Part shown: positions 3,761-11,759 of the stretch, one piece after another | How positions within the stretch are numbered: position 1 is the stretch's first letter | Layout: the number at the start of each line of letters is the position of its first letter | Assembly (NCBI GenBank): GCA_965235115.1 | Contig: OZ249436.1 | Location: 32,118,001-32,182,000 of the forward strand | Length of the DNA: 64,000 nt | Reading direction: 5' to 3' | Source: Laetmonice hystrix | Taxonomy: Eukaryota | The notes under the pieces: generated by a model | The model's input: the letters and a program-made list of their open reading frames with translations, nothing else | Told to the model about the DNA's origin: nothing | Databases searched by the model: none | Translations under genes and position numbers: made by a program

Positions 3761-4170
3761 CAGGGGTAGATTTTGTGTGTGATTTTTTAGGAGTCAGCAG
3801 GACTCCCAAGTTGCAAACTCTAGGAGTCCGCCAAAAAAAAGTGGGAGTCCGCTATCCTATAGGGAATACAACGTGACTGGATGTAAAAAAAATCACAGAC
3901 GGTGTCATGCCATAATAGTTTGGCACAAACAATCAAGTAATCAAGCCATGATGGGGGAGGGGGGATGAGTGAAACACATCAGTCCTGTGACCCCTGCGGA
4001 GTAGCAGATATTCGGTTCACCGTGACTGGGCAATCGTCGCCTGGTCCTGGGTTAAAACCTGCATCAATCAATCTAGGAGACAGCCGGACTCCTGGTCAGG
4101 TGGCTGCCAGGAGTCCGTCCCAATTTTTGGGAGTCTCGGACTCACGGACTCCCATCGAAATCGACCCCTG
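3761..4170. mobile_element. Non-autonomous TIR element (hAT-like, CA...TG ends) in RPS2 intron 1
   Basis: TIRs caggggtagattt / aaatcgacccctg; 5-bp direct repeat ATCGG at 3756-3760 and 4171-4175; internal repeated ggagtc/gactcc motifs. Confidence 0.7.
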
Positions 4171-4585
4171 ATCGGACAATGCATATGGAACCTTGGTTGT
4201 CCGCAGGAATTTCTGGTTGTCCAGAATTGTACCACAATGCTTGGAACGTCCTCGCGCTCTTCAGTGTGAAATTTGCGACTCCACACTGAAGAGCGCGAGG
4301 ATTATGTCACCTATCATTTAGATTTGCGCTAGCACCAAAGGTGCAAGGTTTTCAGTTGGCAAGGGGTGAGGGCTGTTTGGTTAGCGCCTTGGTATGAATG
4401 AACGAGGGATGGTATAAGGAGTTTTAAATATGTACATACATTTATCAGATGATAAGCCTAATAAAAATTCCTGCTGGGCGTTAACCTTTTTAGTTTTGTG
4501 CTGGGTGTGATCATTGAACTAGACTGCCCTCAGATATATTTCAGTCTGTTTAATATATAGATTCTTTACTGGTAACTTACAGCAA

Positions 4586-4831
4586 ATGGCGGACGCAGCA
4601 CCAGCCGGTGGTAGAGGAGGTGACCGAGGTGGGGACCGTGGGGGTTTCCGAGGTGGATTCGGTGGTCGTGGCAGGGGTCGTGGTCGTGGACGCGGCCGTG
4701 GAAGGGGTCGTGGCCGGGGAGCCAAAGATGGGGACAAAGAATGGATGCCAGTTACAAAACTGGGACGCCTGGTCAAGGATTTGAAAATAAAAACTCTGCA
4801 GGATATCTATCTCTTCTCTCTTCCTATCAAG
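4586..4831 (+). CDS. RPS2: 40S ribosomal protein S2 (uS5), coding exon 1
   Basis: [12 protein letters not shown]...RGRGRG...[14 protein letters not shown]...IYLFSLPIK; donor AAG|gtgagg, phase 0. Confidence 0.98.
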
Positions 4832-5270
4832 GTGAGGTTTTTCATTGATACCATGATATTATTAGCACATTTCTAGCTGTAATATTTAGATACACACCTG
4901 AGATTATCATGCACTGATATGGTGAAATTGTTAACTTCATATACAAGAAAAAAATTGTTATTATTATAAACTGTCAGGTACAGTGTAAATATTTTTCACT
5001 TTTTCAAAACAAAGCAATGTGAAATCATTCATTAAACAGTTTTCACTATCAACACAGAGCACCCCACTTGATGAAGTGGAATATGGTGAAGGGGGGGGGG
5101 GGGTAAACAGGCTGCGACTGGTACAAAAGGGGTGTTTGGTGGGGAAAAGGTTGGGGACCACTGGCTTAGACTGGTAACAATGACAACATGTTGATTTTAC
5201 ATGAATGTGGGACATACTTTAAGGTCGTTTTTAAAATATTGTTTTGTAAGCCATTGTATTTAACAAGTGA

Positions 5271-5438
<168 letters not shown>

Positions 5439-6579
5439 TAAAGGCAGCGCAAAACAGTAGAGCCTATGGACAGGCTTGGTCAAGGCTGCCGGTGTATTAT
5501 TTTGGGATTTTAGTACGACGACAGAAGGGATGCACCAGTCACTCACAGGCCTTTTGGTGTACTATATACTGGGGAGAACACTGAACTGTGAATGGCTTTC
5601 GCCTTGCCCTCCACCTGTAGGACTGAATGACTTTTGGTCTGTAGCTTGGTCCTCGGGTCTATATTGGCTACGTATAGAGCCTTGTGAAGGCTAATCAAAG
5701 AAAGCATTGCGTCTGTTTCGCAGGGGACCAGGCTATATGGCCTGTAGGGAGGATCAGATAGGGGGTTGTCGTTTGGCCTGTAGGGAGGGTCAGATCGGGG
5801 GGGTCCCCCCCCAACTCTGCATATCTTCTGGCACTTATGATAAATGTTACCCAGTAGTAATGTTCTCTTTTGGCAAGGACAAACAAATATTGTGTGAGGA
5901 CAACTACATTTCAATAGATTCTGATTAGTTTTAGTTTAGACTAGTTTTTGAAGCAATTTTTACAGACCTGATTTAGTCACTCCACTATGATGGGCCTGAA
6001 AAGGTGATCTACAAATCGCCATGAAGCAGCGACTGGTAGTGGGAAATCTTTTAAATTGAAAATAAATTGCCAAAATAAGACTACTTGTAGGCCTAGTTAC
6101 CAGCCCTAATACCAAGAAAAATTTGCTGAAAAATTGGTCTGTGGAGCAGCCTGTGGTCCCTGCTTTTTCCCATAGAAATCAGATTTGGCACCCAGCATTT
6201 AGCGGCCAGCAAGGAGTGTTTTAAAACAAAATTTGTTCAAAATGCACCAGGTCAGTCTTGCGCTCCCATTAAGATGTATTAGCCCTGCCTTTAAAGGGAT
6301 TTTGTGTTTTGGAAAAGTTATGGAAATTCTTACAGCCAAAGCTGTGCCAACCCTGCTATAGGCAAAACAACATTTATTCGCACCTCCTTGTCCCTCGCCA
6401 TTGTCCCCCAAATATTGAAAATGTCCCCTAGTTTTGTGATCAGCGGGACATGGGGGGGGGGAAGAGATATTGGGCTAACAACTCCAAAGTGCATCCCAGC
6501 ATGGGGTTCATGATAGATTAATGATTATATATCTAGTTATACACCACCATTGAATTCATATTATTCTTTGTTAAAATAA

Positions 6580-6840
<261 letters not shown>

Positions 6841-6905
6841 TGAGATCCTGTTCTTCCCTTTACTATTTTGACTAAATATTTGAATTCTGTATTTCTTAAA
6901 AAGTG

Positions 6906-6981
6906 GCTGCAGATGATTAAACAGTTTATGGATCAACCACCTGAAAGAATTGACATGTTGAAACATTGATTATGATGCAGT
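6906..6981 (+). ncRNA. Intronic box C/D snoRNA-like RNA, copy 1
   Basis: Terminal stem gctgca/tgcagt; C ATGATTA (6913); guide TGGATCAACCAC; D' CTGA (6941); C' ATGTTGA (6955); D ATGA (6972). Confidence 0.75.
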
Positions 6982-7384
6982 ATCAGTATGGAATATTTGG
7001 TTAAACTTGATCAAGGATCTGACGATGCTTTTGATATCATGAGCAATCCACCTTTTAGGAAGAGCTTCACTGGAAAAATCTGAAAAAGATCATTTTTTCA
7101 AAGTCATGGAAAATAACCCAATATGTTCAGACTGCATTAATTCATAAAGTTCTCTTTGATCTTTCCGGTAACTGCTTTGAGTAAATGTATTTTTTGAAAT
7201 CTAAACATTTTAAGTGGTACCAAGGAACCAGTTTCTTTTTTAAAAAAAAGGGAAATCCATGAGGGAAGAACAGCATTGGTTTCACGTGTGAATCTACATG
7301 TTTGGGCTGCCCCTAATATATATATTGTAATGTGAACAACATTAAGAAGCATTTATTTTGCTCTGTTTGTTTCTTGTAATCATG

Positions 7385-7457
7385 GCTGCAAATGATATAA
7401 GCTATATAATGGATCAACCACCTGAATTACCTGTTGAGGCATTTGTTTTGATGCAGC
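7385..7457 (+). ncRNA. Intronic box C/D snoRNA-like RNA, copy 2
   Basis: Stem gctgca/tgcagc; C ATGATAT (7392); same guide TGGATCAACCAC; D' CTGA (7422); C' CTGTTGA (7431); D TTGA (7448). Confidence 0.65.
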
Positions 7458-7986
7458 ACAATATTTTATAAAATTAAATGTATCCATGCCCATTTTGAAA
7501 AGTTGCATCTCTGTGACACGTCACGTGAAGGTGTGAAACCAAAATTGTTTGTTCTTACTAGGGATACTTCACCAGGGTTCTGGTGAAGCTCAAAGTCACA
7601 CTGGATGCCCATCTTAAAATGGATGAATATAAGGATGTTTAGTAGTTTCGTCATATGATAACTTGGTACAAGCATCATTGTGACAAATTGAGGGACTAGA
7701 ACTAGTAGTTCAAGTGAAAAGCAGTACGTCATTGAATGGAACCACTGACTAAGGGGAGTAGAGAATTCACTAGCCCGACGTATTCAGGCAGGCCTAAACT
7801 AATGACAACCTGAACATTTATCCAGTAGCCCGACTGGAGAATACAGTAGCCCCGGGCGTCGGGTGATAGAAAGTCAACACTACTGACTATATTATCTTTG
7901 GGACTTCACCCTTCTTTAGGATAAAAGTTTCATTCTTCCAGTTTTACGATTTACTCGTTTTGTTAGGAGTAGGTGTCTTCTCATGT

Positions 7987-8059
7987 TGCTACAGATGATT
8001 AAACATTTTCTGGATCAACCACCTGAATCTTATGTTGAAACAGTAGGTATGATGTAGCA
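7987..8059 (+). ncRNA. Intronic box C/D snoRNA-like RNA, copy 3
   Basis: Stem tgctaca/tgtagca (compensatory change relative to copies 1-2); C ATGATTA (7995); same guide; D' CTGA (8023); C' ATGTTGA (8032); D ATGA (8049); ~90 nt upstream of the 3' splice site. Confidence 0.78.
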
Positions 8060-8150
8060 CTGGAAAGGTATGCGTGATCGTATAGAATTTTACTTGACTT
8101 GCGGGTATGTGTAGCAGTATATTTATAATTTACTATCAATTTATCTCTAG

Positions 8151-8310
8151 GTGACGGGCAAGTGTGGCAGCGTTGTGGTACGTCTGATTCCTGCCCCCCG
8201 TGGTACAGGTATTGTCAGTGCTCCAGTACCGAAGAAACTTCTCCAGATGGCTGGTATCGAAGATTGTTACACAAGTGCACGTGGTCAGACTGCTACACTT
8301 GGCAACTTTG
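8151..8310 (+). CDS. RPS2: 40S ribosomal protein S2, coding exon 4
   Basis: ctct[56 protein letters not shown]|gtaagt, phase 1. Confidence 0.98.
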
Positions 8311-8560
8311 GTAAGTCATATTTAAGGGCAAAAAGTAAACGATGAACATACTTAGCTTTTTTCCTTTGATTTCACGGAATTTACCTAGTGATTTATGTGA
8401 ACTATGAATTTATTTGCACCACTTATGGACAATAGCTTGCAGTAGATGTCTGGCGCTATAATGAAAACATTTTTAAATGTGTAGAACTTTCATTCAGTGA
8501 AACACCGTCAGAATAGGCGTTGAACTAGTGTTTATTGTGGGTGAATCCTTGACTTTCCAG

Positions 8561-8727
8561 CCAAAGCCACCTACGCTGCCATTGCGATGACGTACAGCTA
8601 CCTAACCCCAGACCTTTGGAAGGAGACCCCCTTCAGCAAGTCTCCGTACCAGGAGTTCACAGACTACTTGGCCAAGAACCACACGCGGGTCAACACAGCG
8701 CTTGCCGCAGAGGCCAAGACGTTCTAA
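8561..8727 (+). CDS. RPS2: 40S ribosomal protein S2, final coding exon
   Basis: ttcc[57 protein letters not shown]; total CDS 855 nt = 284 aa + stop. Confidence 0.97.
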
Positions 8728-8789
8728 ATGGAACGCAGGCTCACACACGCTACAGTGCTCACAAGCATTGTAATGGTAAAAATGACAAA

Positions 8790-8795
8790 AATAAA
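8790..8795 (+). terminator. Polyadenylation signal of RPS2
   Basis: AATAAA ~60 nt after the stop, followed by T/GT-rich sequence. Confidence 0.75.
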
Positions 8796-11759
8796 AAAGT
8801 CGAAAATCGAAAAACTATGCATTTGGTGTATTTCTTAGGAAGATCGCAAATCTAGATTGGTATGACAATCATCAACTGTATTTGGATGATTTGTACAGAG
8901 TGACCACAGTACAGAGAAAACCTCCCCAAAGACTCCTTCCAGGAAATTGGTAAAAATGACCAAAACACGGAAAAAGTTGCTGGCCAAAAACATAAATTGG
9001 CAAAGGCGGAAGGACATCAAATGGTTCGTTCAAAATGATTGTGATCTTATTCAAGATTTCTGACCACTATAGTGGGGCCATGAAAACGGCATTCCAAAAC
9101 AGAATTTGTGTGATCACCCTGTTTGTAAAACAAAAGGCGCTGAAAGTATGATTAGATCCCAGAAATGTATGGAAAAGGCACGTCACATAAAGCTTACTCC
9201 AGGAAAAATACAAAAGTGTCGCCCAAAACAACCGGAGAGAAACGTGTTTTCGGATAATGTGGTATCCTTGGAGACAGCCTAGTGTCTAAGTTTGCCGTCA
9301 GGTGGTAGTAGTGCATTGATTATCCGGCGGACTCTATGCCCAGTAGACTACCGAAATCTATGTCGGGATGATTAAGGCAAAATGTATAACTGGCCGTAAA
9401 CCTAGGCTGTAATTTCAGCGGGGGGGGGGGGGGGGAGGATCCAGGAATTTAGGAAATGGAGGGGGTCCTTTTCTGTAGCTCCTGCAGTGGTAATTAACGT
9501 CAAAATTTGTCGGTATAACTTTAACAGGTTTTATAAAAGGTCATTTTGACATTTATAGAGCTAATATCTAGCAGAGCAGAAATGTTCTACCGCCCTGCTT
9601 CCGATCGACGCGCATTATCCGGTACCGACTGACGTCGGCGTCCTTACAACGCATGCCGGACGTCACATCCGGGCAGGACCTTCAGTCCGGTCTGTCAACC
9701 GCGGACAACTTGTGGCTGTGTGTGGGTATCAGGGGCAGTGACCGCCGTGTGACCACGCCCACCTGTGCCACCGGACACCTTGCCATCGGACAGAAGGACG
9801 AGCAACGCGACACTGACGGCGCAGGTGACGTCCGTAGCAATGAGTCCCGGCCCCAATATAACAAATGTGTCCGAACAAAAAGTACCACCTGTTGTATCGT
9901 CGGCCGCACTGAATGGCTGCTGCTTCGATGCCGAGGACAGCATAAAAGGCCTTTAGTATATACAGACAGGCGCGGAAACGAACACGTCGAGAACTCATTA
10001 CTCTTCTCTTTTTTGAAAATACAAGGCCAGATGCCAGTAGCTCAAGCTTCTGTCTGAGAGAGAAAGAGAAAGGCGTTGACACGTGGATGGAAAAAAACTC
10101 ATGTATACATGTAGGAATAATTATATAGGCTAGCAGCATTATACCAAATGACACGCAAATATTAATGACTAAACTAGAATTATGTCGATAAGAATTTATG
10201 TTATCGATGTGTTTATTATCAGAATTATGAGACGTATGATAACATTATGATGCATAGAAGTAATTCACCTGGGCCTATTTAATTCCCATTCCAATCGACA
10301 ACATTTCATTATGCCGGTAGGCCGATGCTATTTTCTTCGCACTGTTTCATTTGGTCAAAGTTTGGCAGCCGACTGGAGGGAGGGCGAGACAGAGACAGAG
10401 AGCAAGCAAAAACCAAATCACCCATGAATGTGGCAGGAGCTATAGGTTTACCACTGGCGCGTGGGGACGCATGCATGAGGCGTGCGCGTCTTCTCAAGAT
10501 CCCGCCCCTCACACGCCGAGAAGACAGACAACCCCGCGTCTGCAGGAGTCGACGCGTTCTTAGCGTTACACTTGGGAGCACAAGAAGAATGGTGGAATAT
10601 ATGAGATTGGAGTCTGGCAGGCACAAAGTGTGCTCGCCGCTGGCGGGGTGAAGAGGTGTACAGATGTTCGCGGTGGGGGTCATGACCCTGAGTTGTTGTC
10701 AGCTGCGGGATCCGCGTGCCGACCACGCGACACAGTGCCAAATATACACGACGTACTCAGTGCGCTTCATTGTCCATGACGACCTCAAGATTGTCAAGGT
10801 GTATAGGGGCCTACCCCCATCTTGCTGTATAGTGTGGTCTGGGCAATTTTTTTCTGTGAGGGACCTGGTAACTTAATAATTAAGTATGCTTAAATCAAAT
10901 ATTCTGACCTTAAAAAATGAAGAAAATTTAATAAAGTGTAAGAGAGAATAAATAATAGACTCTAAGAAACCTTAGATCTAACCTAGGCCTACCTTAACCT
11001 GTAAGGTACCTGTATTTCAATTATAACTTTGCATAACATTGAAACTTTCATGTGCAAAACCTTTCAAACAGGTATTTTACACAGGGGGGGGGGGCAACAA
11101 GTTGGGAGGATGCTGTATGTAGGGCCTATACATGTAGGCTACATTGTATCTCATTGGTGAGTTAAATGGTAATCTCACCGATGATTGTATGAAGCCTGAT
11201 TCATGAGATAAACGCATTAGGCCTATATATTGTGTATCCGTTACCATGGAAGCCCAGTAGGCCTATAGACAGAACTTTTTATACCTGCAGGATCTGAATC
11301 ACAATCATGCACGGATATACCCACGCCGGGTGCACGGGCCTCTCTCTTGGCGTGTCCCCGGGAACTTTCTACTGTCACCCTGAACCCCCACATACCACCT
11401 GCCACTGACGGTGGAACTAGGCCACACCTGCCGTTGTCGGCTCTGACCTTTGCCCTCAAAACGTATCGAGCCCCAAAACCCAGAGCGACCGCGTCTCTGT
11501 AGTGCGGGATATACGTGAACGTCGGCGGCGAGAATCAAAGACAATGAGGGGTGCAGATGGCCAAATCCCACGACCAATCAGAAGTGATTGCTTCGCACAG
11601 GTGATGATCGCCTCCGTATATACAGAGCGGTTACACCTACTTAACCTTTGTGAAGTTTTCAGGCGCATTACAGACGTTTATGTAATGATCAGTCTCAGCC
11701 ACATCGAATTCTATCAAATCACTAAGCCCATGATCTACACATCTTAATTTAGGCCTAAA

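Follow-up and report, generated by a model that had tools for sequence, protein, structure and literature searches.

Why should a single intron of the ribosomal protein gene RPS2 (uS5) carry three copies of what appears to be one small nucleolar RNA, all with the same guide against the extreme 5' end of 18S rRNA? The locus came to attention through a reading made from the DNA alone (the sequence-only reading), which proposed three paralogous box C/D snoRNAs directing 2'-O-methylation of U8 and considered an undescribed guide family. Here, we ask whether the three units are snoRNAs, whether U8 is their likely target, and whether the guide is new. The window referred to below is the whole 64-kb stretch of DNA that was analyzed.

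Anatomy of the three copies and their host gene

The features of the host gene and of the three copies are as follows.

4586..8727, + strand: RPS2/uS5 coding region, five coding exons (4586-4831, 5289-5396, 6637-6810, 8151-8310, and 8561-8727), 284-aa translation
6811..8150, + strand: RPS2 host intron with the three snoRNA copies, third intron of the coding region, 1340 nt, GT..AG
6906..6981, + strand: snoRNA copy 1, stem 6906-6911/6976-6981, box C ATGATTA 6913-6919, guide 6930-6939, box D' CTGA 6941-6944, box C' ATGTTGA 6955-6961, box D ATGA 6972-6975
7385..7457, + strand: snoRNA copy 2, stem 7385-7390/7452-7457, box C ATGATAT 7392-7398, guide 7411-7420, box D' 7422-7425, box C' CTGTTGA 7431-7437, box D TTGA 7448-7451
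7987..8059, + strand: snoRNA copy 3, stem 7987-7993/8053-8059, box C ATGATTA 7995-8001, guide 8012-8021, box D' 8023-8026, box C' ATGTTGA 8032-8038, box D ATGA 8049-8052

Three of the four RPS2 exons scanned matched Pfam Ribosomal_S5 or S5_C, a protein search with exon 5 returned exclusively animal matches (72-83% identity), and exon 3 has one genomic match, pointing to a single RPS2 gene in this invertebrate. At 4576-4585, directly before the start codon, lies the 3' splice-site-like motif CTTACAG, implying an untranslated first exon upstream. Also 5' of the start codon lies a near-perfect 21-bp hairpin (4248-4302; z = -8.7), for which all miRNA matches were below threshold and which could be a small foldback element. 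A high-copy interspersed repeat occupies ~7750-7885, between copies 2 and 3, where contig depth reaches thousands compared with ~45 around it; resembling repeats are found at 4400-4550, at 5000-5170, and in RPS2 intron 2. The same intron 2 holds a further C/D snoRNA candidate (6515-6604; box C ATGATTA at 6521, D' TTGA at 6550, D CTGA at 6596) with a weak terminal stem and a weak match to snoZ221_snoR21b (RF00300; E 4.4). Its D' guide is complementary, apart from a single mismatch, to 18S starting at nt 1294, and the +5 rule would place its target at G1298.

Each copy combines terminal K-turn boxes, internal D' and C' boxes, and an antisense element of at least 10 nt with a location on the sense strand of a housekeeping-gene intron. 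Pairwise, the copies are 71-81% identical and 51 of 84 alignment columns are invariant, so that the earlier statement that they diverge almost everywhere was too strong. All 16 columns of guide plus D' are invariant, whereas the D-guide region has 4 invariant columns out of 10 and the spacer between D' and C' has 2 out of 10; TGGATCAACCACCTGAA is shared unchanged by the three copies. A run of 17 invariant columns arose in 379 of 200000 permutations, in a test that takes in the D' box itself. The guide followed by CTGA occurs three times in the 64-kb window against an expectation of 0.02, and none of 100 shuffles contained three or more occurrences. Similarity between the 60-nt flanks on each side of the copies stayed at shuffle level in six of six comparisons, and therefore only the snoRNA unit is conserved.

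The C and D boxes of all three copies form a kink-turn with a 3-nt bulge, G.A, A.G, and U.U pairs, and a Watson-Crick fourth pair, next to a terminal stem of 5-6 bp. Consensus boxes have G-C as the fourth pair, and the copies have U-A, A-U, and U-A (copies 1, 2, and 3, respectively). The odd C and D boxes thus covary, which argues that a working K-turn has been kept, and the copies provide a neat natural illustration of C/D box covariation within a K-turn. The sequence-only reading had contrasted non-canonical C and D boxes with a perfect D'. The D' box is indeed a perfect CTGA in the copies, whereas the C and D changes are compensatory rather than defective, and its C box ATGATTA applies to copies 1 and 3 but not to copy 2 (ATGATAT). 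The reported G-C to A-U replacement in the terminal stem is real and belongs to copy 3. What had been overlooked is a degenerate but invariant C' box (TGTTGA), located 5-10 nt 3' of D'. Fold z-scores of the units (-0.15 to -1.52) are unremarkable, as is usual for C/D RNAs. In the contigs of three DNA runs, all taken from a single sample and free of spliced joints, the three copies lie at flat single-copy depth; the assembly itself may derive from these runs. At the level of sequence, this anatomy confirms the three units as real box C/D snoRNA paralogues, with coordinates, intron, and invariant guide and box as first proposed.

Elsewhere in the genome, the guide with its box has 13 matches in total, 10 of them outside the RPS2 intron. 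These 10 were rejected as paralogues, since inspection by eye of 40-50 nt of flank revealed neither a C box nor a stem. Five of the 10 belong to one tandem repeat (G000:C20:23555044-23555584; L009-L013) with a unit of ~48-54 nt containing GGATCAACCATCTGA, a chance look-alike. A genome DNA search with copy 1 recovered copies 1 and 3 alone and is therefore too insensitive to rule out diverged copies. On 19 sources, the covariance model R1 returned nothing else convincing.

Pairing of the guide with the 5' end of 18S rRNA

The 18S rRNA has 13 genomic matches, and its 5' end is alike in six of six copies and begins TATCTGGTTGATCCTGCC. It thus starts with TATCTGG rather than with the TACCTGG quoted in the sequence-only reading, a difference that leaves nt 5-14 unaffected. 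With nt 5-14 of this 18S, the guide forms ten Watson-Crick pairs, and in all three copies the +5 rule points to U8, so that the predicted Um8 holds on the animal's own rRNA. This stretch is the sole perfect 10-mer match and forms the strongest duplex (-17.1 kcal/mol; the next ones, -13.8 to -15.8) in a comparison covering the animal's own 18S, 28S, 5.8S/ITS, 1500 nt of 5' ETS, 3' flank, U2, U6, and U3; the better duplex with another RNA that could have overturned the assignment did not appear among them. A loose scan of the RPS2 introns gave many chance pairings with scores similar to that of the 10-bp duplex, and the case therefore rests on the triplicate invariance and on homologues. The D-box guide regions have no common target, their matches being weak and different in each copy, and within the 1500 nt of 5' ETS compared, no complement to the copies exceeds 6-7 nt.

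In the 18S sequence, nt 4-8 pair with nt 16-20, with U8 opposite G16, a pairing that we take to be helix 1, beside the central-pseudoknot loop. Nucleotides 17-22 of the animal's own U3 (GGATCA) are complementary to 18S nt 9-14, in agreement with the earlier remark that the target overlaps a stretch that U3 can bind. Since U3 and the guide share nt 9-14, they cannot bind there simultaneously.

The same guide in other eukaryotes and in archaea

No Rfam family reached its gathering score in the 64-kb window. A relaxed search (E up to 10, region 4000-9000) gave 15 matches, and copy 3 matched TtnuCD24 of Tetrahymena (RF02300) at 20.8 bits (18.6 bits in the genome search), below the gathering cut-off of 75. 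Although this is a subthreshold match, guide and target are the same: TtnuCD24 has the identical 16-nt guide plus D' (TGGATCAACCACCTGA) at the same D' position, and its predicted target is UGGUUGAUCC in 17S (17S/18S nt 5-14). This RNA, cd24, came from a cloned small-RNA library. In a comparison with plant, yeast, and human, supplement file 2 of PMC3273799 lists it as "Not Conserved (conserved Trypanosoma brucei)", in keeping with the sequence-only reading, which knew of no human or yeast site, and adding plant to it. TtnuCD24 differs from the copies in being 58 nt long with canonical boxes, whereas the copies measure 73-76 nt, have a longer stem and boxes that covary, and are intronic and triplicated; beyond boxes and guide there is little similarity.

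In trypanosomatids the position itself has been measured. According to supplement file 11 (row 162) of PMC13487219, SSU_8 is positive by mass spectrometry and cryo-EM but negative by RibOxi-seq in L. donovani, positive in every cryo-EM column for L. major, and positive by RibOxi-seq at the aligned position 36 of T. brucei, with LD/LM33Cs2C1 and TB10Cs2C1 as assigned guides. Positions 8, 18, 28, and 38 of the L. donovani SSU share the pattern of a negative RibOxi-seq and positive mass spectrometry and cryo-EM results in that source. Like the copies, the assigned guides address SSU position 8 with a mid-molecule guide ending in AACCR-N-CUGA; unlike the copies, they are ~95-180 nt long, and the guide, the part compared, is longer, differs in several letters, and includes a G.U pair. 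T. brucei TB10Cs4C3 and TB11Cs2C1 were rejected as homologues because their targets differ.

A metagenome scan returned at least 119 loci with the guide; among the matches listed, one (L061) has C/D anatomy and none is an animal homologue. None of 89 viral contigs showed C/D anatomy. At locus L061 (78-145), the same guide is part of a complete, canonical C/D snoRNA that lies ~60 nt away from a telomere repeat of ciliate type (CCCCAAAA), which suggests a location on a ciliate nanochromosome. The main text of the Euglena paper does not mention the site, and the accessible part of the Oxytricha paper has nothing on U8. Given TtnuCD24, the trypanosomatid SSU_8, and L061, both site and guide were already known. 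The sequence-only reading was therefore right about the feature and its target and overstated its novelty.

The guide is also found in archaea. A scan of 185,579 prokaryotic genomes for the pattern box C, 0-14 nt, guide, and CTGA yielded 112 loci, 53 of them with a one-nucleotide gap (a subset of L152-L263). Fifty-two of these 53 are labeled archaeal and one bacterial, and the archaeal loci span Thermococci, Desulfurococcales, Sulfolobales, Bathyarchaeia, Nitrososphaeria and relatives, as well as Methanomethylicia, Culexarchaeia, and Aenigmatarchaeota. Complete two-guide sRNAs were present at 50 of the 53 loci, compared with 0 of the 59 others (58 labeled bacterial). Of the 50 complete sRNAs, 34 carry the guide next to D and 16 next to D', and the partner guides are varied. 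Loci L170, L234, and L242 adjoin tRNA genes. Known sRNAs of this kind are archaeal sR14 (RF01145) and Ignicoccus sR155, which resemble the copies in having GGATCAACCR-N-CTGA one nucleotide after box C or C'. Judged by guide sequence, the archaeal C/D sRNAs are aimed at the same 16S position, but they are ~55 nt long and carry two guides, with this guide at D or D'. The sR14 cut-off (38 bits) was passed by 2 of 20 loci tested (L152 and L193), with 18 below it, and the copies themselves gave no match to RF01145 at E up to 10 in region 4000-9000.

The 16S 5' end was recovered from three of the five source genomes searched, and each time a guide G faces C5, whereas the animal guide has A opposite U5, i.e., guide and target covary. 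Across the 53 loci, 38 have G and 15 have A at the position facing nt 5. PMC4644070 lists Ignicoccus Iho sR155, found by RNA-seq, without a predicted target, and cautions that shared guides may be convergent. Evidence against methylation at this position comes from the P. abyssi 30S cryo-EM structure, whose table contains no methyl-U for helix 1 (PMC7005279). Given that the guide switches between D and D' and that its partner guides vary, the pattern would fit either common ancestry or convergence.

Among rRNA maps of animals and other eukaryotes, two count against methylation of U8: it is absent from the 24-site planarian RiboMeth-seq list for 18S (PMC11649923) and from the Dictyostelium table, which makes a comparison with human and yeast and begins with Am28 (PMC8817022). 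The text of the Drosophila preprint PMC13228274, whose site tables are in its supplements, does not mention U8. Um8 did not appear in 12 of the 14 supplements of PMC11156624 or in the text and 4 of the 5 supplements of PMC11698992, and the accessible portions of PMC7994747, PMC6411936, PMC2978370, PMC3177221, and PMC7672448 have nothing on the site. Full-text searches, which leave out supplements and most subscription journals, turned up no paper in which Um8 is named for an rRNA. The trypanosomatid site surfaced only in a supplementary spreadsheet, and such searches skip supplements; "first in an animal" is therefore provisional. With this proviso, an animal carrier of the U8 site looks new, as does a spread over archaea, Discoba, ciliates, and an animal.

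Proposed role and comparison with known guides

We hold with good confidence that the copies act as ordinary single-guide C/D snoRNAs, which would methylate U8 in early small-subunit assembly while nt 5-14 are free of U3 and helix 1. This builds on the observed anatomy, K-turn covariation, complementarity, and +5 register; methylation of U8 is what we infer from the homologous sites. Protein assembly, processing, and timing would follow established C/D biology. The three duplicated snoRNAs would be released from the intron of the RPS2 pre-mRNA, and each would form its C/D kink-turn and recruit Snu13, Nop56, Nop58, and fibrillarin. The D' guide would then pair with 18S nt 5-14 in the pre-rRNA, setting fibrillarin on U8 for 2'-O-methylation; U8 pairs with G16 (U.G) to close helix 1. 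Given that the guide overlaps the U3-pairable nt 9-14, it would have to act before U3 docks, or after U3 exit but before helix 1 closure.

The overlap with U3 could alternatively mean that the RNAs are expressed mainly as chaperones, which keep 18S nt 5-14 open and set when U3 hands over and when helix 1 and the central pseudoknot fold, with methylation absent or incidental. The triplication, suggesting that dosage matters, would suit such a role, and a Leishmania methylation guide for another site doubles as a chaperone (PMC13487219, in the part available). We nevertheless consider it rather unlikely. The chaperone-only alternative, already raised in the sequence-only reading, is weakened because guides in the same register methylate the U8 site elsewhere: the exact +5 register on U8 recurs in the guides of the animal, of ciliates, of trypanosomatids, and of archaea, and methylation was seen where the site has been measured. 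Moreover, the copies show no second conserved antisense element beside their weak, copy-specific D-guide matches and the short complements to the 5' ETS. That the 18S match is coincidental and the true target another RNA (such as U1, U4, U5, a minor snRNA, a tRNA, or an mRNA) appears extremely improbable. A 10-mer is frequent in a 627-Mb genome, and the duplex comparison was confined to rRNA, its flanks, U2, U6, and U3, but 18S nt 5-14 was the sole perfect 10-bp match among the RNAs tested, and the same guide is aimed at the same site in other lineages.

Methylation of U8 by all three copies has its own difficulty, in that three snoRNAs from one intron would need extra cleavage or hidden exons, which counts against this otherwise best explanation. 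In vertebrates, an intron usually carries a single snoRNA, placed 70-90 nt from the acceptor, and copy 3 ends 91 nt from the 3' splice site of the RPS2 intron, near that spacing. One could thus imagine that a single copy, most likely copy 3, is processed and that the others are silent or decaying duplicates. This is very unlikely in our view, as copies 1 and 2 retain guide, four boxes, and stem at 71-81% identity and copy 2 shows a two-sided K-turn change, which together point to selection on each copy. Acceptor-like AG sites at 7058 and 7561 lie 77 and 104 nt 3' of copies 1 and 2, paired with weak donors at 7167 and 7582; both AGs score no better than other AGs of the intron. Hidden exons at these sites are possible and might give each snoRNA an intron of its own.

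If U8 is the target, as predicted here, a site methylated in trypanosomatids and predicted in Tetrahymena is extended to an animal, and the locus is a case in which a common binding site for a methylation guide and U3 can be put to the test. That many archaeal lineages have this guide points to very deep ancestry or else to recurrent selection for a methyl group at the closing pair of helix 1, adjacent to the central pseudoknot. It is tempting to speculate that the U8 guide is among the oldest RNA guides and came down from the archaeal ancestor of eukaryotes, that thermophilic archaea, Discoba, ciliates, and some invertebrates have retained it while vertebrates, yeast, and plants have lost it, and that it marks an overlooked, U3-competing step at helix 1; we advance this tentatively, as a possibility to be taken seriously but not as our expectation. 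Sequencing-based maps may miss U8 because it is eight bases from the 5' end, and the L. donovani discrepancy at SSU 8 between RibOxi-seq and mass spectrometry or cryo-EM suggests that other invertebrates may carry the site unnoticed.

Among known systems, U3 (RF00012) shares with the copies the C/D class and the ability to pair with 18S nt 9-14. U3 serves as a chaperone in processing and not as a guide for methylation. It differs in its length of ~218 nt and has 19 separate matches elsewhere in this genome, whereas the copies, at 73-76 nt, have no 5' extension and no complement longer than 6-7 nt in the 1500 nt 5' of 18S. In contrast, the copies probably work like TtnuCD24 and the trypanosomatid SSU-8 guides, although they fall below the threshold of every Rfam family. 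The snoRNA triplet contains no new mechanism; what it adds to these systems is an animal carrier, covarying boxes, and the archaeal spread of the guide.
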